The notes: generated by a model not told the origin, from the sequence alone. 64,000 nucleotides of DNA from an uncultured Alphaproteobacteria bacterium (GCA_963808645.1 CAWEGU010000005.1:93442-157441); one strand, 5' to 3'; positions 18,190 to 30,444 are shown, counted from the first letter of the stretch. Numbers and translations: made by a program.

Positions 18190-19407
18190 TCAGGAAAGAC
18201 CCCGTGGGAACAATGCCCAGGTATGGCGGGCGATCTGCTCGTCTTCCTGCGAGGCGAGAACGAGCACCGAGCAGCGCGATACGGGATTGTTGATGGGATT
18301 GTTCGCGGACCGGTTCCGAGCTTCATCAAGGCTGAGTCCGATCCAGGACAAGCCGCCGCAAATCGCGGCGCGAGCTTCCTCATCGTTTTCTCCAATGCCG
18401 CCGGTGAAGACGATTAAGTCAACTCCATCAAGCGCGGCGATCATCGCGGCCACCTGCTTCCGCACGGAATAACAGAACAATTGAATGGCAAGCCGTGCAT
18501 CGGCATTTGACGGCGCGGCTTCATGCAGATGCCGCATATCGCTGCCAACGCCCGAAATTCCCAGAAGGCCGGAACGGCGATCGACCAGCTCTTCAAGCAT
18601 GGCCGCATCGAACCTCTTTTGACGCATCAGATAAACCAGAACACCGGGATCGAGGTCGCCGCTGCGCGTGCCCATGATCACCCCGCCGGTGGGCGTCAAT
18701 CCCATGCTGGTGTCGATCGATTTGCCGCGTTTGACCGCGGTGACGCTTGCGCCGTTGCCGAGATGGGCGATTATCAGGCGGTTCGGCAAACCGTTCCCAA
18801 GCTGGTGCACGATCGATTCGCACGAAAGGCCGTGAAACCCGTAGCGTTGGATACCTTCCAATTGCAACTCCTTGGGGATCGGAAGGACGCGTGCGACCTC
18901 CGCCAATTCGGCATGAAAGGTGGTGTCGAAACAAGCCACCTGCGGAAGTCCCGGAAAATGCTCTTGCGCGAAGCGGATGACTGCCAGAGCCGATGGAATA
19001 TGCAGCGGCGCGAAGGCGGTGGCGGCTTCAAGTTGGCGTAGGACAAAACCATCAATGAGGCAATGCTGCCGGAGCTTCGGTCCGCCATGCACGATTCGAT
19101 GTCCGATGGCGGCTGGTGCCGGCGATTTGGAGTCGGCAAGAAGTCTTCCGATGCGGATGATCGCTTCCCGTTGGCTGGGAATGAATACCGTCTCGGAGAG
19201 CAATGCATTTCCGCGCGAATCCTGCGCATAGAATTTGCCTTTCTCGTCGCCGATCGACTGAGCCTCGCCGGAGATCTGCGTTTCGGCCCGTGAAGAGCCG
19301 ACGAGGTACAATCCGAATTTGAGCGAGGAAGAGCCGCTGTTCAGCGCGAGCACGTTCAGCCCTGGCTCGGCGTCTTTCATGCCGTGTCCCGGCTGAAACA
19401 CGCTCAC
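18190..19407 (-). CDS. ackA: Acetate kinase
   Basis: [47 protein letters not shown]. Confidence 0.93.
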
Positions 19408-21767
19408 AAGTTCCAGCGCCAGTTGCGGACCTCCGGCATGTCGTCGCCATGCTCACTGACATAGAGCTTGTGACGCTCCATGGTCGTCCAGTAACGCGCC
19501 GTCGCCGTCTCCACTTGATCGCTGAGCCGTGGAATTCGCTGGATAGCGTCCAGCGCGAGTTGATAGCGGTCGAGATTGTTCAGCACGACCATGTCGAAGG
19601 AGGTCGTGGTGGTGCCTTCCTCCTTGTAACCGCGCACATGGATATTGTCATGATTGTGCCGCCGATAGGTCAGCTTGTGAATCATCGCGGGATAACCATG
19701 AAAAGCGAAGATCACCGGCTTGTCTGGCGTGAACAGCTTGTCAAAATCCTGATCTTCCAGACCGTGGGGATGCTCGGACTGAGGCTGCAATACCATCAAA
19801 TCCACCACGTTGACGACACGGATGCGGATATCGGGGACATACGAGCGCAAGAGGGTCACGGAAGCGAGCGTCTCAAGGGTCGGCACATCTCCGGCACAGG
19901 CCATGACCACCTCGGGATCGCCGCCATCGTTGCTGGCCCATCGCCAAATACCCGCGCCGACGGTGCAGTGGCGAACGGCCGTATCAATGTCGAGCCACTG
20001 CCACTCCGGCTGTTTGCCGGCGATGATCAAGTTGATGTAGTTGCGGCTGCGCAAACAGTGATCGGCTACCGACAGGAGGCAGTTTGCATCCGGCGGCAGA
20101 TAGATGCGCGCAATATCGGATTTCTTATTCGCGACATGATCGATAAAGCCGGGGTCCTGGTGGGAAAAGCCATTGTGATCCTGTTGCCAGACATGCGAGG
20201 TGAGCAAATAATTCAACGATGCAACCGGCTTCCGCCAGGGGATTTTTCTGCTAACCTTTAGCCACTTTGCATGCTGATTGAGCATCGAATCGATGATGTG
20301 GACGAAGGCCTCGTAGCAGGAGAATAGGCCATGGCGTCCCGTGAGCAGATATCCTTCGAGCCAGCCTTCGCATAGATGCTCGCTCAGCACCTCCATGACA
20401 CGGCCCTTGACATCGAGATTAACGTCGACTTCTTCAACTTCGGCCATCCATTCCTTGCCGGAGACTTCGTAGACGGCCTCCAATCTATTCGACGCGGTCT
20501 CGTCCGGGCCAAAGAGCCGGAAATTATGTTTGTCGAGATTGAGCTTCATCACGTCGCGCAGAAATTTTCCGAGAACCCGCGTCGCTTCCGCCTTGACGCA
20601 GCCGGGCTTAACTACGAGCACGGCGTAATCTTCGAAGTGGGGCATCGCTAGAGGCTGTAACAATCCACCGCCGTTGGCGTGTGGATTGGAGCCCATGCGG
20701 CGATGGCCCGTGGGCGCGAGCGCAGCGAACTCGTCGCGGAACTTGCCGTGTTCGTCGAACAGTTCGTGCGGCCGATAGCTCTTCATCCAATCTTCGAGTT
20801 GCTTTAGATGTTCGGGATCTTTGAAATCCGCGATCGGGACTTGATGCGCGCGCCAGGTGCCTTCGACCGGCTTGCCGTCGACGAATTTCGGCCCTGTCCA
20901 ACCCTTGGGCGTGCGGAAGACGATCATCGGCCAGCGCGGGCGCTCGAGGGTTGCCGTCTCGCCGCGAGACCGCGCGGCGCTCTGAATTTGGCGAATCTGC
21001 TCCAGAATCGCATCGAGCGTACCGGCAAGACATTGATGCACGGCCTCCGGATCGTCGCCCTCGACGAAACGCGGATCGTATCCGTAGCCGCGCAGCAGCT
21101 CGATCAGCTCCTGGCGGCTGATGCGAGCCAGCACCGTCGGATTGGCGATCTTAAAACCGTTGAGATGAAGGATCGGAAGAACCGCGCCATCACGCGCCGG
21201 GTTCAAAAATTTGTTGGAGTGCCAACTGGTGGCCAGCGCGCCGGTTTCCGCTTCGCCGTCGCCGACGATGCAGGCGACGATCAGATCCGGATTGTCGAAG
21301 GCGGCGCCATAGGCATGGGTCAACGAATAGCCCAGTTCTCCGCCTTCATGAATAGAGCCGGGAGTTTCCGGCGCCACGTGACTGGGAATTCCGTAAGGCC
21401 AGGAGAACTGGCGAAACAGCCGCTGCAGTCCGTTCCGGCTGCGCTCAATCGCCGGATAGTGCTCCGTGTACGAACCCTCCAGATAAGTCTGGGCCACTAG
21501 GCCTGGGCCGCCGTGACCCGGACCAATGACGTACATCATATTCAAATCGTTTTCTTTAATCAGCCGGTTAAGGTGGACATAAAGAAAGTTCAATCCCGGT
21601 GTCGTGCCCCAATGCCCGAGCAAACGAGGTTTGATATGTTCGAGCCTCAGCGGGGATTCGAGCAAGGGATTGTCTTGCAGATAGATCTGCCCGACCGACA
21701 GGTAATTCGCGGCGCGCCAATAGGCGTGCATTTTCCTGAGGAGGTCAGGTGATAAGGAGTCGGGCAT
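19404..21767 (-). CDS. xfp: Xylulose-5-P/fructose-6-P phosphoketolase
   Basis: [39 protein letters not shown] motif GDGEAETG...[15 protein letters not shown]; overlaps the ackA start. Confidence 0.95.
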
Positions 21768-21990
21768 CAGGGTCTCCGAGATTGATTGCTGCTCTCTTGC
21801 CTTGTGGGTCTGGGCGAGGCATGAGGTGGCCTTCCGACCGGCGCGCTGAGGGAGGCTTCCTGCGACAGGTTTCGCGCCGGCGGCGACATCGGCGTACGGC
21901 CACATCCCCACCGGTCGGATAGAGGCAACCCGTCGGCAGGCGACCATCGCCGCGCCTGAGGAAGCGCGGCATATTCAAACGCCGCGCTCC

Positions 21991-23565: not shown

Positions 23566-24948
23566 TCAGAATGCAATCCAGCTGTAGAGGAAAACGGTGT
23601 TGTTCTGCGAGGCGTTGTGAAAGGTGCCATCGAAATTGTTTACCCCCCCGAAGAGCTTCAGATAATGCGTGTAGGATAGGCCGATACGGGCATTGGCCCA
23701 AGGCCAAACCGATGGCCCGCCTTTGCTGAACGGCAAATAGGCGGCGTCAAATATGATTCCTTGACCGTCGGGACTGTTGGCGAGCGAAGTGGGGCCGAAC
23801 AGCAACGCATCCGCTGACCCATAGACGCTAAAATAAGCTGCCGTTAGGCTGATCGTGTGGTCGTAAACGTAGCCGAGCGAGGCCTTGAAGCTCTCGAGCG
23901 TGTTGAAATTGTTGAATGAAAGTCCTTGCAGAAAGGACGAATTGAGATGCTGCAGCTCGTTTATGTGCGTGATTTTGGCCGTAACGATATGTGGATCGCC
24001 AATGTACTGGTACTGCGCATCAAATCCGATATCCAGAATCTGATCGAACCCAAATCCGGGGACCCGCCCAGGCAGCTCATTGACTGATAGACCAAACGTG
24101 CCAAATTCAAACGAGTGCTCGCCGTAGTTGAATTCAAGAGCGGCGCGCCAGTAGGGCGCGGCGCCACACATCGAGAGATCGCCGATGCCTGGCTCGCCGA
24201 GTGCCTCCAATGCTTGCCGGGAGAGGTTTTGGTAGACGCTCCCTTCGAGGTAGAGCATGTCGTTCCAGAAGGTATAGATTCCTGTTCCGACGACTTTCCC
24301 CCCAAGAGCCCCTTCGATCGTTGTTCCAGGGGGCGCAAACTGCGGGGCAATCGTGGATGCGATGTAAGGAAAACCCCAGGCGGGGGTCGTGTTCCAGACG
24401 TCTTGAACGGTCGGATTGTTGTTGACCGACACGCCATAAATCAGATCGAGACCAAAAAGGCTTGCCGTATCCGCATAGCGGATATCGGTGTTATCCAGAA
24501 ATGTGTGGTTCGATGCCCTGTCATAGGTGCCCTGAATCAAGGCGCCAATATTTCCGTAGATTTGGCCGCCGTAAAACACGCTCACTTGCTGCAGGATCGT
24601 ATTGTTGTTGGTATGGGCGTCTCCGAGCGGCGGCGTATCCTGGTTTCGGGCGGTGTGGGTGAAAGTTGGGACGAGCATCGCGGCAAGTGGCGGTGCCTCC
24701 TCAAAAGTCAGACCGCCGCCCATCGTATAACCGGCCAATTTGAACCGGCGCCCGAATGGCGTGAGTTCGGGAAAAGCGGTATGACACGTCGCACAGGGCT
24801 GACCGGTTTGCCGCGCGAAACTCGGTACCGCCGATGCCATGGGCGGTTTGATCAAGATCCCCGCTCCGGTCACCATCACGGCAAGGAACGCTACCCCTCC
24901 AACAGCAGCCGCGGCTGGCCAATCACGCCGCGCGTAACGGGCTGTCAT
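23566..24948 (-). CDS. cyc2: Cyc2-like fused monoheme cytochrome c / outer-membrane porin (start could be as far up as 25020)
   Basis: After a signal-like segment: AVPSFARQTGQPCATCHTAFPELTPFGRRFKLAGY; about 400 aa of aromatic-rich beta-type sequence; ends YSWIAF (outer-membrane C-terminal Phe). Confidence 0.82.
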   Translation of the reverse strand: MTARYARRDWPAAAAVGGVAFLAVMVTGAGILIKPPMASAVPSFARQTGQPCATCHTAFPELTPFGRRFKLAGYTMGGGLTFEEAPPLAAMLVPTFTHTARNQDTPPLGDAHTNNNTILQQVSVFYGGQIYGNIGALIQGTYDRASNHTFLDNTDIRYADTASLFGLDLIYGVSVNNNPTVQDVWNTTPAWGFPYIASTIAPQFAPPGTTIEGALGGKVVGTGIYTFWNDMLYLEGSVYQNLSRQALEALGEPGIGDLSMCGAAPYWRAALEFNYGEHSFEFGTFGLSVNELPGRVPGFGFDQILDIGFDAQYQYIGDPHIVTAKITHINELQHLNSSFLQGLSFNNFNTLESFKASLGYVYDHTISLTAAYFSVYGSADALLFGPTSLANSPDGQGIIFDAAYLPFSKGGPSVWPWANARIGLSYTHYLKLFGGVNNFDGTFHNASQNNTVFLYSWIAF

Positions 24949-25465
24949 GGTTTCACTGCCGATGCCAGCTTTCGGACGCGCGGCTTTGTCGAAATCAGCG
25001 TTCATTGGAGTATTTTGCATGGGCCAGCGTTGCCGCCGCGATCGAACCGCTTCGAAAAGGGAGGTGAACACACGCGACCTTTCAAAACGTCCGGTTACGC
25101 TAACAGCCCTTGCGCGTTGGCGGCAAGCGAAATTAAGCCATACAATTTGGTCTTTTTTGTATGTGGTCGTAAAGCAACACAGCTGATCAGCGCAGTTGGT
25201 GAACAAATTCGCTGAAGAGCCTAAAGCGCCCTCTCAAAGCGGCTCGCTGGGCTTGCCGCAAAGCTATCGCAGCGCGACACTTCTACGCATTGATTTCGGA
25301 GGCTCGGGCGCGATGATCCGGAGCCTCTGTTGCGTGGCGATGCAATCCGGGACTTCTGAGCGTCACTCGCCGTGCAGCGCCTCACTGGAGTTGAGGCGCT
25401 GCTACTTTTCGCCCGAGGCATGGCAAGCCAATTCCGTCATCGGCGTTTGCCACGCAATCCCGCGC

Positions 25466-26077
25466 TCATTGTAGGCGATCGTACTCGACAAAGCTTAGGT
25501 ATGAAGCGAGGGCTTCAATTTCGTTTGGGGATAATTTGTTTGCGATATTAGGCATGGGCTCTGCGGCCGCGTGAAACCCTTCGCCCCACTGTTCAAGCCT
25601 TCTTTTTAAGTAGGAATACGCCAGCCCCCCCAGCCTTGGAATTTCTCTTACCCCCTCGGCATTCGGGCCATGACAGACGAGGCAGGACACAATATTGGAA
25701 TTCGGAATTCCCTGTTCATAAATCGTTCTACCTACGGCGACCAGATCCCTGTCTCCGTCATTGGCGGCTTTGGGGGGCAACATCGAAAAGTAGGCAGCTA
25801 GATCATGCGCCGTCTCGGGACTGAGATTTGCCACGGCACCCCACATATACTGCTTTGAATAGGGGTTATCCCGGCTGCGATTGCTAAAGCTCAGAAGCTG
25901 ATTCGCGATATACTGATCTCTTTGTCCGGCTAGGCGTGGCGCAGTCGCAAACCCTTCTGCCGACGTTCCATGGCACCACGTGCAGTTCCGGACGGGAATG
26001 GGCTCACCTGCCAACAGCGGACCGGCAGCACAAGAAACGATCGCCAGGGTTGCCACTTTTGAGGTGATGAGTTTCAT
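25466..26077 (-). CDS. Diheme cytochrome c4 (Cyc1-like)
   Basis: Signal peptide; CTWCH and CLVCH; PRLAGQ; distal Met in YMWG and PMP. Confidence 0.9.
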   Translation of the reverse strand: MKLITSKVATLAIVSCAAGPLLAGEPIPVRNCTWCHGTSAEGFATAPRLAGQRDQYIANQLLSFSNRSRDNPYSKQYMWGAVANLSPETAHDLAAYFSMLPPKAANDGDRDLVAVGRTIYEQGIPNSNIVSCLVCHGPNAEGVREIPRLGGLAYSYLKRRLEQWGEGFHAAAEPMPNIANKLSPNEIEALASYLSFVEYDRLQ

Positions 26078-26129
26078 GATTCGCGTTCTCGCGCTTATGC
26101 AAAACTGGCACCCTGCTAAGCGATCAAAA

Positions 26130-26777
26130 TCACTTCAGAGAGCTGATGTAGGCTGAGATGGCAGCAATCTGGGATTGGGTCAGGTTGTGGGTGGTCGGCA
26201 CCATAATGGCCGATGTGTCTTTCGCCGAGCGTTGCCCTCGCTCTTTGCTCCAATTCGTCAATACTTTCACCGTGTACGGAAAGAGCTGGCCGGCAAGCCG
26301 GGGAATTTCGTCTTTACCCTTAGCCGCCGGACCATGGCACGCTGAACAGGCAGGAACGTTGGCTTCAGGTAATCCTTCATCGAAGATTGTTTTTCCTATG
26401 GCCAGGTTTTCCTTCGGAGCACCGCCTATTGGATTGGGATCGAGATCCCTAAAATGTGCGGCCAGGGCCGCGATCATCGACGGACTGAGAGCATGCGCCA
26501 CGTTAAACATGGCGGCGTTCATCCGCCTGTGCTCAATGAAGGCCTGTAACTGGTTCTCGATGTATTTGGGCTGTTGCCCTGCGAGTCGGGGCATGGGAAA
26601 ATATCCGCGATAACCCTGCCCAGACAGCCCGTGGCAGGCTTTGCAATATTCCAACTTGGCCTGAAGCTCCGGCTTCGAAAAGGCGGCCTTGCCCCGATCA
26701 TCCGCGCGGCTCGCTGCGGAGAAAAGAATAGCAAGGGCTGCTGTTTGCAACGCCAATTGTAAACGAATGAACTTCAT
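26130..26777 (-). CDS. Diheme cytochrome c4
   Basis: Signal peptide; CKACH and CSACH; PRLAGQ twice. Confidence 0.9.
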   Translation of the reverse strand: MKFIRLQLALQTAALAILFSAASRADDRGKAAFSKPELQAKLEYCKACHGLSGQGYRGYFPMPRLAGQQPKYIENQLQAFIEHRRMNAAMFNVAHALSPSMIAALAAHFRDLDPNPIGGAPKENLAIGKTIFDEGLPEANVPACSACHGPAAKGKDEIPRLAGQLFPYTVKVLTNWSKERGQRSAKDTSAIMVPTTHNLTQSQIAAISAYISSLK

Positions 26778-26818
26778 AATCCGGCCTCCCCGCCCTTCCT
26801 TTCGTGTCATCGCCCAAT

Positions 26819-26950
26819 TGACCTTCCTGCAACTTCCTGCACGCCGGACTCAAACGGCTTTTCACTCATTTTCATTGTGCGCGATGGAGCCAAGGGCAGA
26901 GTGGAGCCGCGGACGATTATAATATCTTCGGTATAGGCAAACAGCTCGCG
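26819..26950 (-). mobile_element. IS3-family right-end remnant
   Basis: RELFAY / YYNRPRLHSALG C-terminal motif across a frameshift; terminal ...GGAAGGTCA-3' at 26819. Confidence 0.65.
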
Positions 26951-27160
26951 TTTTGTTACTTACCGTGGGGAAACGGATCGGATCGACGAGTTCAGTGCAA
27001 AGTACCCGGGTGGAACGGAAAACAACAAACCTCTCCCACTGCGCGCATTCTGCTCCAACGCACAAAAGGCCCACCAACCCCGTCATTATTAAACAGCTGG
27101 CGCATATGGTCTAGATCTGCGTGCCATGGCGTAGCGTCAGATAATATCGGAGGGCGGAGC

Positions 27161-27817
27161 ATGAGAATCATTTTGGTGCCCGCGGCAATTCTCGCAATTG
27201 TTTTCACGACCGCGGGTCGCGCGGAAGAAACGAGTCCAGTCACCGTTTCGCAGCAAGAGCTTCAGGCTAAAATAGCATATTGCAAAACATGCCACGGATT
27301 GTCGGGGCAAGGTTTTCGTGGAGCGTTTCCGATGCCGCGACTCGCGGGGCAGCAACCCGAATATCTTGAAAATCAGTTGCGGGCCTTCAATGAGCGCAGG
27401 CGGACAAACCCAATTATGTTTAACGTCGCGCACGTCTTGAACCCGCAGATGATCACGGCTTTGGCAGCGCATTTTAAGGATCTGGACGCAAAACCGTTGG
27501 GTGGTGCTCCAAAGGAGCTCGTGGCCGCGGGAAAGACACTCTATGCGGGAAAGACACTCTATGAGGAGGGAGTGCCTGACGCCAACGTTCCTCCATGCTC
27601 TTCCTGTCACGGTCCAGAGGGTAAAGGCGACGGGGCTTTTCCCCGGTTGGCCGGTCAGCTCCGTGACTATATTTTTCGCAAGCTGGTGAATTGGAACAAG
27701 GAGCGAGGTCAAGATCGGTCAAAACCAGACACTTCAGCTATTATGGAGCCGATTGCGCACAGCCTGACGGAGCCGCAGATTGAAGCAGTTGCGGCCTACG
27801 TCAGCTATCTGGAGTAA
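27161..27817 (+). CDS. Diheme cytochrome c4, paralog of 26130-26777
   Basis: CKTCH and CSSCH; shares ELQAK..YCK.CHGLSGQG.RG.FPMPRLAGQQP with the divergent copy. Confidence 0.9.
   Translation: MRIILVPAAILAIVFTTAGRAEETSPVTVSQQELQAKIAYCKTCHGLSGQGFRGAFPMPRLAGQQPEYLENQLRAFNERRRTNPIMFNVAHVLNPQMITALAAHFKDLDAKPLGGAPKELVAAGKTLYAGKTLYEEGVPDANVPPCSSCHGPEGKGDGAFPRLAGQLRDYIFRKLVNWNKERGQDRSKPDTSAIMEPIAHSLTEPQIEAVAAYVSYLE
27527..27562 (+). repeat. In-frame 18-bp tandem duplication
   Basis: GCGGGAAAGACACTCTAT x2 gives AGKTLY-AGKTLY. Confidence 0.9.
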
Positions 27818-28002: not shown

Positions 28003-28233
28003 ATGTACGAGCACCATGCGGCGCGCGAGGACACAATCGTGTTTCCGGCGTGGAAAGACGCGCTTTCAGCGCATCAACTCGACGAAATGGGCGAGTTGTT
28101 CGAGGAAATCGAGCATCAGCAATTCGGCAAGGATGGATTCGAAGACGCCGTGGCGCAAATCGGACGCATCGAACAGGCCCTCGGCATTGCCGACATCGCG
28201 CAATTTACCGCGCCGCCACCACCAAAGACTTGA
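28003..28233 (+). pseudogene. Hemerythrin-like domain protein, C-terminal fragment
   Basis: MYEHHAAREDTIVFPAW (H-x3-E motif); N-terminal half missing. Confidence 0.65.
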
Positions 28234-28240
28234 GGTTCTT

Positions 28241-28950
28241 ATGGGCACGGATAGCAACGCGGTCCCGTCCAAAGGGCATCGCTCCTTTCTGGAAGTGCTT
28301 TCTGTCTTCCTTCGGCTCGGGGTCACAGGCTTCGGCGGGCCAATCGCGCATCTTGGCTATTTCCGCGCCGAAATCGTCGAGCGCCGCAAGTGGCTCGATG
28401 AAGCAGCCTACACCGATACTATCGCGCTCTGCCAGTTCCTTCCCGGCCCGGCAAGCAGTCAGGTCGGTATTATTCTCGGCATGGTGCGCGCCGGTCTTCC
28501 GGGCGGATTCGCGGCGTGGCTCGGCTTCACAATTCCTTCAGCGCTCGCCCTCATCGCCTTCGCTTATGGCGTCGGCAGCCTCGGGGAGATATCGCATATT
28601 GCATGGCTGCACGGCCTCAAGATCGTCGCCGTCGCTGTCGTTGCGCAGGCGGTTTGGCGCATGGCGGAAAGCCTCTGCCCTGATCGGGAAAGGGTGACTC
28701 TGGCTATCGCGGCAACTCTGCTCACCTTGGCGATTCCTTCGGCAACCGGCCAGATCGGAGCCATTGTGGCGGGCGGTATCATTGGCTGGCGATTTCTTCC
28801 CGGCATGAATAACGCCGAAGCCACGCCGCCCTCGATTCCTGTCGGTCGCACAACCGCGATTGCTTCGATTGCAATGTTTGCCGCCTTGCTTTTCGGGCTG
28901 CCGTTGCTTGCATCGGCAACGTCCGATCACACAATCGAGCTTATCAGCCG
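28241..28950 (+). pseudogene. chrA: Chromate efflux transporter ChrA, C-terminal half missing
   Basis: FLRLGVTGFGGPIAHLGYF...CQFLPGPASSQVG; similarity stops at IELISR. Confidence 0.88.
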
Positions 28951-30444
28951 CCTTGATATAGGTTTCCACCGGCGCGCAGGTGCAAACGAGGTTGCGGTCT
29001 CCATAAACATTATCCACGCGGTTGACCGGCGGCCAGTATTTATCGACCCGGAAGGCGCCGGCCGGAAAGCAGGCGGCCTCGCGGGAATAGGGCCTGTTCC
29101 ATTCGCCCACGAGGTCTTCGACGGTGTGCGGGGCGTTCTTCAAAGGATTGTTCTCTTTGTCCATGCGCCCTTCCGCGATGGCCCGCGCCTCCTCGCGAAT
29201 GGCGAGCATCGCGTGGCAGAAACGATCGAGTTCCCCCTTCGTCTCCGACTCAGTGGGCTCCACCATCAGCGTCCCCGCGACGGGCCAGCTCATGGTCGGG
29301 GGGTGAAAGCCGCAATCGATGAGCCGCTTGGCGATGTCGTCGACGGTGACGCCAGCCTCCTCGAGCAATGGCCGCGTATCAATGATGCATTCATGCGCGA
29401 GGCGACCCTTGGCGCCCGAATATAGCACGTCATAGGCGCCCGCGAGGCGTTTGGCAATGTAATTCGCGTTCAGGATCGCGACGCGGGTCGCTTGCGCAAG
29501 GCCTTCGCCGCCCATCATCAGGCAATAGCTCCAAGAGATCGGGAGGATCGACGGCGAACCATAATGCGCCACTGAAACCGTTACGGCGTTTCCGCCCGTC
29601 TCGGGATGGCCGGGCAGGAACGGCGCGAGGTGCGCCTTGACGCCGATAGGCCCCATGCCCGGGCCGCCGCCGCCGTGCGGAATGCAGAAGGTCTTGTGAA
29701 GATTCACGTGGCCCACGTCGGCGCCGAAGTCGCCAGGACTTGCGAGCCCTACAAGTGCGTTGAGATTGGCGCCGTCGAGATAGACCTGGCCGCCGTTCGC
29801 ATGGGTGATCGCACAGATCTCGCGGCCGGCGGCTTCAGAAGCGTGAGCGCTAGCGGATCGGCCGCGATGACGGCGATCGCCTTCGCTGCATGCAACTTGG
29901 CGATCGGCTCCGCGAAATCGTGGAAGTCGCCGGTGACGCCTGGGTATTGAAAAAGCGCGCCGAAGACCTGGTCTGGCTCCAAGTCTTTGAAGGGATCTCC
30001 GACGATGATCCTCCATCCAAGTGGCTCCGCGCGCGTGCGCGCTACCGCAATCGTCTGCGCCAGGCAATTTTCATCGACAAAGTAAGCTGTCGCCTTCGAC
30101 TTCGTGACGCGATCGGCGAGCGCGATCGCCTCTGCCGCCGCGTCGCCTCGTCGAGCAGCGAAGCGTTGGCGATAGCGAGCCCGGTCAGGTCCGAGACGGC
30201 CGTCTGAAAATTGAGCAGCGCCTCAACCCTGGCTGACCTCCGGCTGATAGGGCGTGTAAGCCGTGTACTTATAGCCTTGGCCGATGAGCGACGTCAGGAC
30301 GCGGTTCTTGTTCGCGGTCTCATCGATCTGCGCGTCGAGACTCGAAACGCCCACGACCCGCAACATTTCGGCGATCTCCTCGGGCGCCGGCCCTATGTGG
30401 CGACAATTCGCGATGTCGTAGGGTTCGTATGCGTCGGCGCTCAT
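28940..30444 (-). pseudogene. gcvP: Glycine dehydrogenase P-protein with several internal deletions
   Basis: [70 protein letters not shown] in only about 1.5 kb. Confidence 0.92.

Follow-up and report, generated by a model that had tools for sequence, protein, structure and literature searches.

We analysed a stretch of DNA of 64,000 nucleotides (nt) from an uncultured Alphaproteobacteria bacterium, hereafter the window, and all coordinates below are positions in it. Our subject is a group of four genes at 23566–27817, one for a Cyc2-like outer-membrane cytochrome-porin (the cyc2-like gene) and three for dihaem c4 cytochromes (c4A, c4B and c4C). An earlier note, made from the sequence alone, had proposed them as a candidate Fe(II)-oxidation or electron-uptake module on an island. 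The features are as follows, with the evidence used for each in brackets; L004 is the corresponding locus of a close relative.

23566–24948, minus strand: cyc2-like gene, predicted to encode a monohaem cytochrome c fused to a 16-strand outer-membrane porin (open reading frame (ORF), AlphaFold2 model, Foldseek, hhalign)
24949–25465, minus strand: long spacer between c4A and the cyc2-like gene (blastn against L004, hairpin, breaks in metatranscriptome contigs)
25466–26077, minus strand: c4A, putative dihaem cytochrome c4 of 203 amino acids (aa) with haem sites CTWCH and CLVCH (two PF00034 domains, match to 1H1O)
26130–26777, minus strand: c4B, putative dihaem cytochrome c4 of 215 aa with haem sites CKACH and CSACH (two PF00034 domains, match to 1H1O)
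26778–27160, no strand: divergent intergenic region between c4B and c4C (rve_3 score, blastn against L004)
27161–27817, plus strand: c4C, putative dihaem cytochrome c4 of 218 aa with haem sites CKTCH and CSSCH (two PF00034 domains)

The cyc2-like ORF (23566–24948, minus strand) was intact and encoded 460 aa counted from the ATG at 24948; an in-frame alternative ATG at 25020 would give a product of 484 aa, the length at which most homologues are called. Genes c4A and c4B lie directly upstream on the same strand, and c4C is transcribed divergently. The c4B start is the ATG at 26777, which is preceded by GGAGG (the ORF as listed runs to 26810).

The cyc2-like protein contained PPMASAVPSFARQTGQPCATCHTAFPELTPFGRRFKLAGY and ended in ...WIAF, with Phe as the last residue. 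A hydrophobic, signal-like N-terminal segment running up to ...PPMASA was followed by AVPSFARQTGQPCATCHTAFPELTPFGRRFKLAGY, and the core read AVPSFARQT-GQP-CATCH-TAF-PEL, in which AVPSFARQT stands 3 residues ahead of the first Cys of CATCH. This CATCH (residues 52–56) was the single CxxCH of the protein. The earlier note's description of an ORF of about 460 aa with AVPSFARQT, CATCH, PEL and a terminal Phe thus held. Cyc2 has been defined by a signal peptide, one CXXCH, the motif AXPXFAR[Q/K][T/Y], a PXL, a length of at least 365 residues and a 16-strand porin, and the AXPXFAR[Q/K][T/Y] motif just upstream of CXXCH is stated to be unique to Cyc2 (Keffer 2021, PMC8406198). All of the sequence features in this definition were found in the window protein, which at 460 or 484 aa passes the length cut-off of 365 aa (FeGenie/Keffer). 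The block AxPSFARQTGxxCxxCH..PxLTxFGRxFK was invariant or almost so in 52 family members (43–84% identity), among which L62 was invariant and P60 nearly so; because the block is kept across these proteins, AVPSFARQT-CATCH-PEL is not a chance motif. The family comprised 3272 clusters at 50% identity (E ≤ 0.001).

Searches of Pfam, NCBIfam and the PDB with the cyc2-like protein sequence returned zero matches. Since these libraries hold no Cyc2 model that reaches the window protein, membership was tested through motif, fold and profile comparison. An AlphaFold2 model built from 52 homologues (mean predicted local distance difference test score (pLDDT) 86.6, predicted template-modelling score (pTM) 0.82) contained short helices at residues 42–71 followed by 16 long strands, in line with the long beta-type body seen in the earlier note. 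Foldseek matched the model in the PDB to 16-strand general porins (OmpT, OmpF, DcaP, PorB; E ~1e-8, template-modelling score normalized to the target 0.5–0.59), and no solved Cyc2 structure was among the matches.

As a yardstick for Cyc2 we used named Mariprofundus proteins, found in a search that covered 401 genomes from the phylum. In this search, the small genomes of one family matched only the N-terminal ~120 residues of the window protein, and exact look-up identified two of these matches as proteins of Mariprofundus ferrinatatus (WP_100266303) and M. aestuarium, both zetaproteobacterial iron oxidisers. In these two proteins, which read AIPAFARQTGAACLACHHLSFPAL, the spacing from motif to haem site was identical to that of the window protein (AIPAFARQTGAACLACH). 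The offset of PxL was 3 intervening residues in the window protein (CATCH-TAF-PEL) versus 4 in Mariprofundus (CLACH-HLSF-PAL). M. ferrinatatus CP-8 is among the carriers of Cluster 1 Cyc2 (Fig. S7 of Keffer 2021, PMC8406198), and we infer that its Cluster 1 Cyc2 is WP_100266303 because this was the sole match in that genome. Pairwise BLASTP between the window protein and the M. ferrinatatus Cyc2 aligned 29 residues (E 4e-7), which alone is too weak; kinship to Cyc2 was therefore settled by profile-profile comparison. With hhalign, the profile of the window family matched a profile of 12 Mariprofundaceae Cyc2 proteins (2 of the 12 being the named ones) with a probability of 99.3% and E 4.4e-20 over 310 columns, extending well into the barrel. 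Motif, length, 16-strand model and profile match together bear out the Cyc2-like call of the earlier note.

The window protein shares with the Cyc2 family (Acidithiobacillus ferrooxidans Cyc2, Mariprofundus ferrooxydans Cyc2PV-1, Leptospirillum Cyt572) the signal peptide, single CxxCH, AxPxFARQT and PxL, as well as a length above 365 aa, the 16-strand barrel and a C-terminal aromatic residue. In contrast, only its N-terminal ~120 residues align by sequence search with the zetaproteobacterial Cluster 1 Cyc2, which is ~404 aa long; the window protein is longer (460 aa) and has long loops. We concluded from motif, profile and model that the 460-aa product belongs to the Cyc2 family, with a predicted N-terminal monohaem cytochrome c and a predicted 16-strand barrel, and that it falls outside Cluster 1. 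One Mariprofundaceae genome carried a full-length homologue (38% identity) alongside N-terminal-only matches, a hint of the non-Cluster-1 Cyc2 type that is present in Zetaproteobacteria (McAllister 2020). A separate match on an 'Acidithiobacillus' plasmid was considered as a rus-operon cyc2 and ruled out, its identity, score and range being the same as those of the match on plasmid pACRY03 of Acidiphilium.

Each of the three c4 genes encoded a signal-like N-terminus, two CxxCH sites and two PF00034 (Cytochrom_C) domains, in keeping with the three signal-peptide dihaem genes, two of them co-oriented upstream, that had first been noticed. The products of c4B and c4C were 61% identical, and c4A was the most diverged type (35–36% identity to either). 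The PDB search covered c4A and c4B, with c4C judged by its 61% identity to c4B. The best match of both was 1H1O (E 3.6e-22 for c4A, E 3.1e-25 for c4B), which outranked Pseudomonas- and Vibrio-type c4 structures and TsdB and which is the A. ferrooxidans c4 cytochrome Cyc1/CYC41. The segment at 25466–26077 that had been noted as Cyc1-like agreed with the HMMER alignment of c4A, in which 'nrsrdnpyskqymwgavanl' of the window stands against 'dhsradqngeiymwpvaqal' of 1H1O. By these matches, all three gene products are predicted to be dihaem c4 cytochromes located in the periplasm and of the same type as Cyc1 of A. ferrooxidans, and the proposed link between c4 and Cyc1 was upheld. Gene c4C also carried a perfect, in-frame 18-bp tandem duplication (GCGGGAAAGACACTCTAT twice; 27527–27562, encoding AGKTLY AGKTLY) in the linker between its domains; the duplication is specific to the window, being missing from four orthologues and from one soil metatranscriptome contig.

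To place the four genes in a wider setting, we surveyed 80 loci with relatives of the cyc2-like gene (41–89% identity) from a public genome collection. The sources were Beijerinckiaceae (Methylocapsa), Rhodoblastus, Bradyrhizobium, Xanthobacteraceae, Stellaceae, Rhodomicrobium, Nitrosospira, Nitrospiraceae, Methylomirabilis and others. By tblastn, orthologues of all three c4 types (53–86% identity) adjoined the porin gene in at least 27 of the 80 loci, one of them on a Methylocystis plasmid, and the c4A orthologues beside cyc2-like genes were 59–81% identical to that of the window. The loci closest to that of the window, L003, L004 and L013, shared its gene order (c4C divergent, then c4B-c4A-cyc2). 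Loci of Bradyrhizobium and Xanthobacteraceae had the order c4C(divergent)-cyc2-small outer-membrane protein-c4B-c4A, and a third order, cyc2-c4C-c4B-c4A, was found in other loci. This conserved synteny supports the term 'module', and shows that the four genes are a conserved unit kept together across many Alphaproteobacteria. Three further observations were made on these relatives. First, 18 loci of the Bradyrhizobium/Xanthobacteraceae type (within L047–L080) carried a gene for a 258-aa small outer-membrane beta-barrel protein (PF13505) between the cyc2-like gene and c4B; this gene was absent from the window module. Second, in a related uncultured alphaproteobacterium (L013:8001-10911) the cyc2-like orthologue was split by an insertion of ~1.5 kb and the three c4 genes were retained. 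Third, in another alphaproteobacterium (L065:9499-12358) the cyc2-like gene was followed not by three single c4 genes but by ~5 tandem c4-like units with ~10 haem domains, an array that could be an expanded periplasmic wire.

Clustering of the flanking ORFs revealed a second kind of partner. A ~90-aa protein with a Tat signal and four invariant Cys residues was encoded in 26 of the 80 loci, ~0.3–1 kb upstream of the cyc2-like gene (L005–L054). A profile of 12 such proteins had PioC as its top PDB match (E 3.9e-17), followed by other high-potential iron-sulfur proteins (HiPIPs); a single one of them scored 19.4 bits against Pfam, which is sub-threshold. PioC is the HiPIP of the Fe(II)-oxidation system of Rhodopseudomonas palustris. 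Among the 57 loci with at least 3.5 kb on each side of the porin gene, the partners were distributed as follows.

c4 genes only: 27 of 57 loci
HiPIP-like gene only: 14 of 57 loci
both c4 and HiPIP-like genes: 3 of 57 loci
neither: 13 of 57 loci

That is, c4 and/or HiPIP-like genes lay beside the porin gene in 44 of the 57 loci, and on the tree of the porin proteins the partner type switched at least 12 times. On this count, genes of the Cyc2 branch to which the window protein belongs are nearly always accompanied by those for soluble carriers from a high-potential family, be it the Cyc1-like c4 trio or the PioC-like HiPIP. Members of each of these two families are known to take part in iron oxidation.

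All four genes of the module were under purifying selection, with ratios of non-synonymous to synonymous substitution (dN/dS) of 0.10–0.21 against the two closest relatives; the selection that had been suspected is therefore borne out. Assembled contigs from three independent soil metatranscriptome studies matched parts of the module at 92–99% identity, and in one run (X27) contigs covered all four genes. Genes of this module type are thus probably transcribed in soil; because the contigs come from related strains and may be DNA, they indicate soil transcription of such genes and not transcription in this strain.

The two intergenic regions were of different character. The spacer at 24949–25465 was poorly conserved even in the closest relative, and blastn against L004 left 25213–25478 unaligned. 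It contained a GC-rich palindromic hairpin with an 11-bp stem at 25374–25402, 64 nt past the c4A stop, and the contigs of run X27 broke within it; the spacer may therefore be a transcript boundary or a processing site. The divergent region at 26778–27160 presumably holds the promoters. A 74-aa ORF in it matched rve_3 with 21.4 bits, below the cut-off of 26.5. A recent insertion sequence (an IS3 remnant) between c4B and c4C was ruled out, since L004 retains the region between the two genes over its full length and aligned by blastn with the window from 27874 to 25478 as a single continuous match at 83%; the rve_3 score, as given, is sub-threshold.

The host genome was that of a methylotroph-like heterotroph, a relative of the Beijerinckiaceae and a member of a family of acid-soil bacteria. 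It encoded one pyrroloquinoline quinone (PQQ)-dependent alcohol/methanol dehydrogenase and no RuBisCO large subunit, which agrees with the heterotroph/methylotroph-like host that had been proposed. Two operons for CuA-bearing oxidases lay away from the module, on contigs C1 and C7. The C1 oxidase was of the caa3 type, having a subunit II with a fused cytochrome c domain, and adjoined genes for alternative complex III; in the CuA sites of both subunits II, read directly from the sequences, Q or A replaces the usual E. Elsewhere in the genome, at C15:527390-527789, a pair of short neighbouring ORFs of 167 aa and 104 aa matched the start of haem-copper oxidase subunit I and are probably a broken third oxidase gene.

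Several observations bear on how the module came to be in this genome. Of 121 genomes sampled from the host's family, 13, representing 9 of 53 genera, carried a cyc2-like homologue. The two other species of the window's genus had no homologue of the module and no syntenic match to 16–36 kb of the window. The GC content was 55.1% in the module versus 59.7% in the genome. On one flank were genes for Usp, phosphoketolase (xfp) and AckA, all intact, and on the other a hemerythrin-like fragment and fragments of chrA and gcvP; a gene for Hsp20 and one for a PAS/haem-type kinase with response regulators were also in the neighbourhood. The xfp-ackA pair (18190–21947) had a second copy at C2:174809-178478 with 98% DNA identity, which is a recent duplication or a transfer between island and chromosome. 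At 28016–30067, half of a chromate-transporter ORF continued into an out-of-frame stretch, and a C-terminal fragment of gcvP (glycine dehydrogenase) at 28.5–30 kb on the opposite strand was a 96–99% copy of part of a gene on contig C3; this region looks like mosaic debris directly adjoining the intact module. Fragments resembling TraG and VirB11, remnants of type IV secretion, were present at 14–17.5 kb. The earlier note had described a module that stayed intact while its neighbours decayed, and this stands for the truncated chromate transporter, the gcvP fragment and the secretion remnants, but not for xfp, ackA and Usp, which are intact.

Homologues were also found on plasmids. A plasmid of Methylocystis sp. 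MJC1, a peat-bog methanotroph, carried the porin gene followed by three c-type cytochrome genes, with an IS66 element ~3.5 kb away and an autotransporter gene in between; further homologues were on the conjugative plasmid pACRY03 of Acidiphilium cryptum JF-5 and on Ralstonia megaplasmids. On the porin tree the window protein nested within a Methylocapsa/Beijerinckiaceae clade, and any transfer of the module was thus probably between relatives. The absence of the module from genomes of the same genus, its mosaic surroundings, its lower GC content and the plasmid homologues make an acquired mosaic island a reasonable reading, and so support the earlier description as a mobile island, in both cases circumstantially. 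No complete tRNA gene was detected in the window (ARAGORN).

We consider it probable that the four genes are a horizontally mobile module that passes electrons inward, most probably from dissolved Fe(II), to the oxidases of the host. Its substrate and direction are inferences. At the cell surface, the porin haem would accept electrons one at a time from a small soluble donor, in all likelihood Fe(II) in solution; the Cyc2-like haem-porin would hand them to the periplasmic c4 cytochromes, and these would carry them over the periplasm to the CuA-type cytochrome c oxidases (caa3 on C1, the second on C7). Dissolved Fe(II) is the favoured donor because the three biochemically tested Cyc2 proteins are all Fe(II) oxidases and because a dissolved ion is a fitting substrate for a lone haem that is buried within a narrow barrel (PMC8406198). 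The same type of cluster has been read as an iron-oxidation path in a pyrite-oxidising Bradyrhizobium (PMC5566968). Since the genome lacks RuBisCO, the pathway would serve an acid-soil methylotroph or heterotroph as an energy supplement or for Fe(II) detoxification, and not for Calvin-cycle autotrophy.

A number of points weigh against this proposal. Outside its N-terminus the window protein matches Cluster 1 Cyc2 weakly (the 29 residues of BLASTP), and its PEL lies one residue nearer to CxxCH than the PxL of Mariprofundus. The biochemically tested Cyc2 proteins are distant from the window protein and outside its sub-family, and function is held to be uncertain for homologues distant from those tested (Keffer 2021, PMC8406198). 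Most carriers of the window's cyc2-like family are not known as iron oxidisers, and the host has no RuBisCO large subunit. No HiPIP was found in the window's own genome, either by tblastn with three of the HiPIP-like partners or with PF01355. The metatranscriptome contigs belong to related strains, their depth is a poor proxy for expression, and carry-over of DNA is possible. Lastly, the neighbours xfp-ackA, Usp, Hsp20 and the PAS kinase point to a low-oxygen or stress physiology, in which electrons might instead flow outward.

Outward flow is the main rival, although we regard it as unlikely. The module would then be a conduit for hypoxia or anoxia, in which electrons pass from quinol through bc1 or alternative complex III to c4, then to the haem-porin, and on to Fe(III) (soluble or chelated), humic quinones or another external oxidant, so that an aerobe of acid soil or peat could keep respiring in order to survive. 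It is suggested by the hypoxia- and stress-type neighbours just named, with the response regulators beside the kinase, and by the homologue on the conjugative plasmid of A. cryptum JF-5, an acidophilic Fe(III) reducer. On the Methylocystis plasmid, moreover, a gene for a Crp/Fnr regulator is ~2.5 kb away from the copy, separated from it by a single unrelated gene. It is established that at low pH the potential of the Fe(III)/Fe(II) couple suffices for it to take electrons from c4-type cytochromes. However, both partner types of this branch, Cyc1-like c4 and PioC-like HiPIP, are known from oxidative pathways, and all three tested Cyc2 proteins oxidise Fe(II) (PMC8406198). An exact TTGA-N6-TCAA site of the FNR/FixK type was absent from the whole window, which leaves control by oxygen via a box of this kind unsupported.

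We judge it unlikely that the conduit runs inward from a different donor in place of Fe(II), for example Mn(II), Cu(I), reduced humics, iodide or sulfur species, or that it is a redox sensor instead of an energy path. The distance of the sub-family from the tested proteins favours such a role, as does the presence of the family in nitrifiers (Nitrosospira, Nitrosomonas) and Methylomirabilis, none of which has a known iron metabolism. Different functions for the homologues of non-iron-oxidisers have also been raised in print (He et al. 2017, PMC5566968; Keffer 2021, PMC8406198). Nonetheless, the family shares a strictly conserved cytochrome motif with the iron oxidases, the burial of a single haem in a narrow porin speaks for a small ion in solution, and clustering of the flanking ORFs found no sensor or chemotaxis gene conserved beside the cyc2-like gene. 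Very improbable is a passenger relic on a decaying island, idle in this genome though the family works elsewhere: the truncated and duplicated fragments and secretion remnants on its flanks, the window-specific duplication in c4C, the split porin gene of L013 and the lack of the module in both sister species would fit it, but all four reading frames are intact, the c4C duplication is in frame, and dN/dS is unrelaxed against the closest relatives, although that measure averages both lineages.

The proposed inward path can be set beside systems already described. The A. ferrooxidans rus operon consists of cyc2-cyc1-cup-coxBACD-rus. The window module resembles it in combining an outer-membrane Cyc2 with Cyc1-type dihaem c4 cytochromes, 1H1O being the closest solved relative of c4A and c4B, but differs in having no adjacent rusticyanin, cupredoxin or oxidase genes, the oxidases being on other contigs, and in having three c4 paralogues where the rus operon has one. 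The likeness to PioABC of R. palustris lies in the 26 of 80 related loci that pair the porin gene with a Tat-signal HiPIP nearest to PioC. In PioABC, however, the outer-membrane part consists of a decahaem PioA and a separate PioB porin, whereas the window has a fused monohaem porin and no HiPIP. Unlike the Cyc2 iron oxidisers, the window host is a methylotroph-like heterotroph without RuBisCO.

The closest precedent is in Bradyrhizobium. As far as the account given through He et al. 2017 goes, Percak-Dennett et al. 2017 described a gene cluster of Bradyrhizobium in which Cyc2 is joined by a HiPIP and by three cytochromes c of the periplasm (PMC5566968); He et al. suggested its horizontal acquisition and reported that Bradyrhizobium sp. 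STM 3843 carries a Cyc2-like gene (PMC5566968). In our survey, orthologues of c4A, c4B and c4C all flanked the cyc2-like homologue in STM 3843 (L072) and in B. diazoefficiens (L050); the porins of these two were 42–44% identical to that of the window, and the three c4 types 59–70%. The differences are in order, c4C(divergent)-cyc2-small outer-membrane protein-c4B-c4A against c4C(divergent)-c4B-c4A-cyc2 in the window, and in content, since the Bradyrhizobium-type cluster has a HiPIP and a small 8-strand outer-membrane protein, neither of which is in the window module, and the host genome has no HiPIP. Clusters of Hyphomicrobiales homologues have been linked to the Cyc2 and Cyc1 of A. ferrooxidans (Zhou et al. 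2023, PMC10654088), and homologues from Burkholderia, Ralstonia and Xanthomonas were thinned from a Cyc2 tree (Keffer 2021, PMC8406198). Because these three papers (He 2017, Zhou 2023, Keffer 2021) describe Cyc2 homologues or clusters, including those of Hyphomicrobiales and non-iron-oxidisers, this kind of system and the way it is interpreted have already been published, as has its patchy distribution, and the novelty accorded to the locus by the earlier note was overrated. The locus reveals no new kind of system. What the window adds is a methylotroph-like relative of the Beijerinckiaceae, an acquired mosaic region and the absence of a HiPIP; the survey adds the pattern of c4 versus HiPIP partners and the copy on a methanotroph plasmid.

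Cyc2 is the only genetic marker widely used for bacterial iron oxidation, and the field has yet to settle what it means in organisms other than the classical iron oxidisers. The locus bears on this question as a clean, intact and apparently selected example of Cyc2 in a methylotroph-like member of an acid-soil family, with a sister copy on the plasmid of a methanotroph from peat bog (Methylocystis). Genetic work on the classical iron oxidisers has proved difficult. Cultured, easily grown carriers of the module family exist (Methylocystis sp. MJC1, Methylocapsa palsarum NE2 and Bradyrhizobium sp. STM 3843), and its function is therefore open to ordinary genetics. The pattern of c4-trio and HiPIP partners helps to interpret FeGenie-type annotations in soil metagenomes. 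A bolder and doubtful possibility is that cyc2 and the three c4 genes are a self-contained plasmid or island cassette, shared among aerobic C1-utilisers and other Alphaproteobacteria of acid peat and soil, that might work in two directions, oxidising Fe(II) in the presence of oxygen and, in its absence, passing electrons out to Fe(III) or humics. If so, swaps between the c4 trio and the PioC-like HiPIP would tune the conduit to the local redox potential, and the cassette would connect the iron cycle directly, at the genetic level, with the C1 cycle in methanotrophs and methylotrophs.

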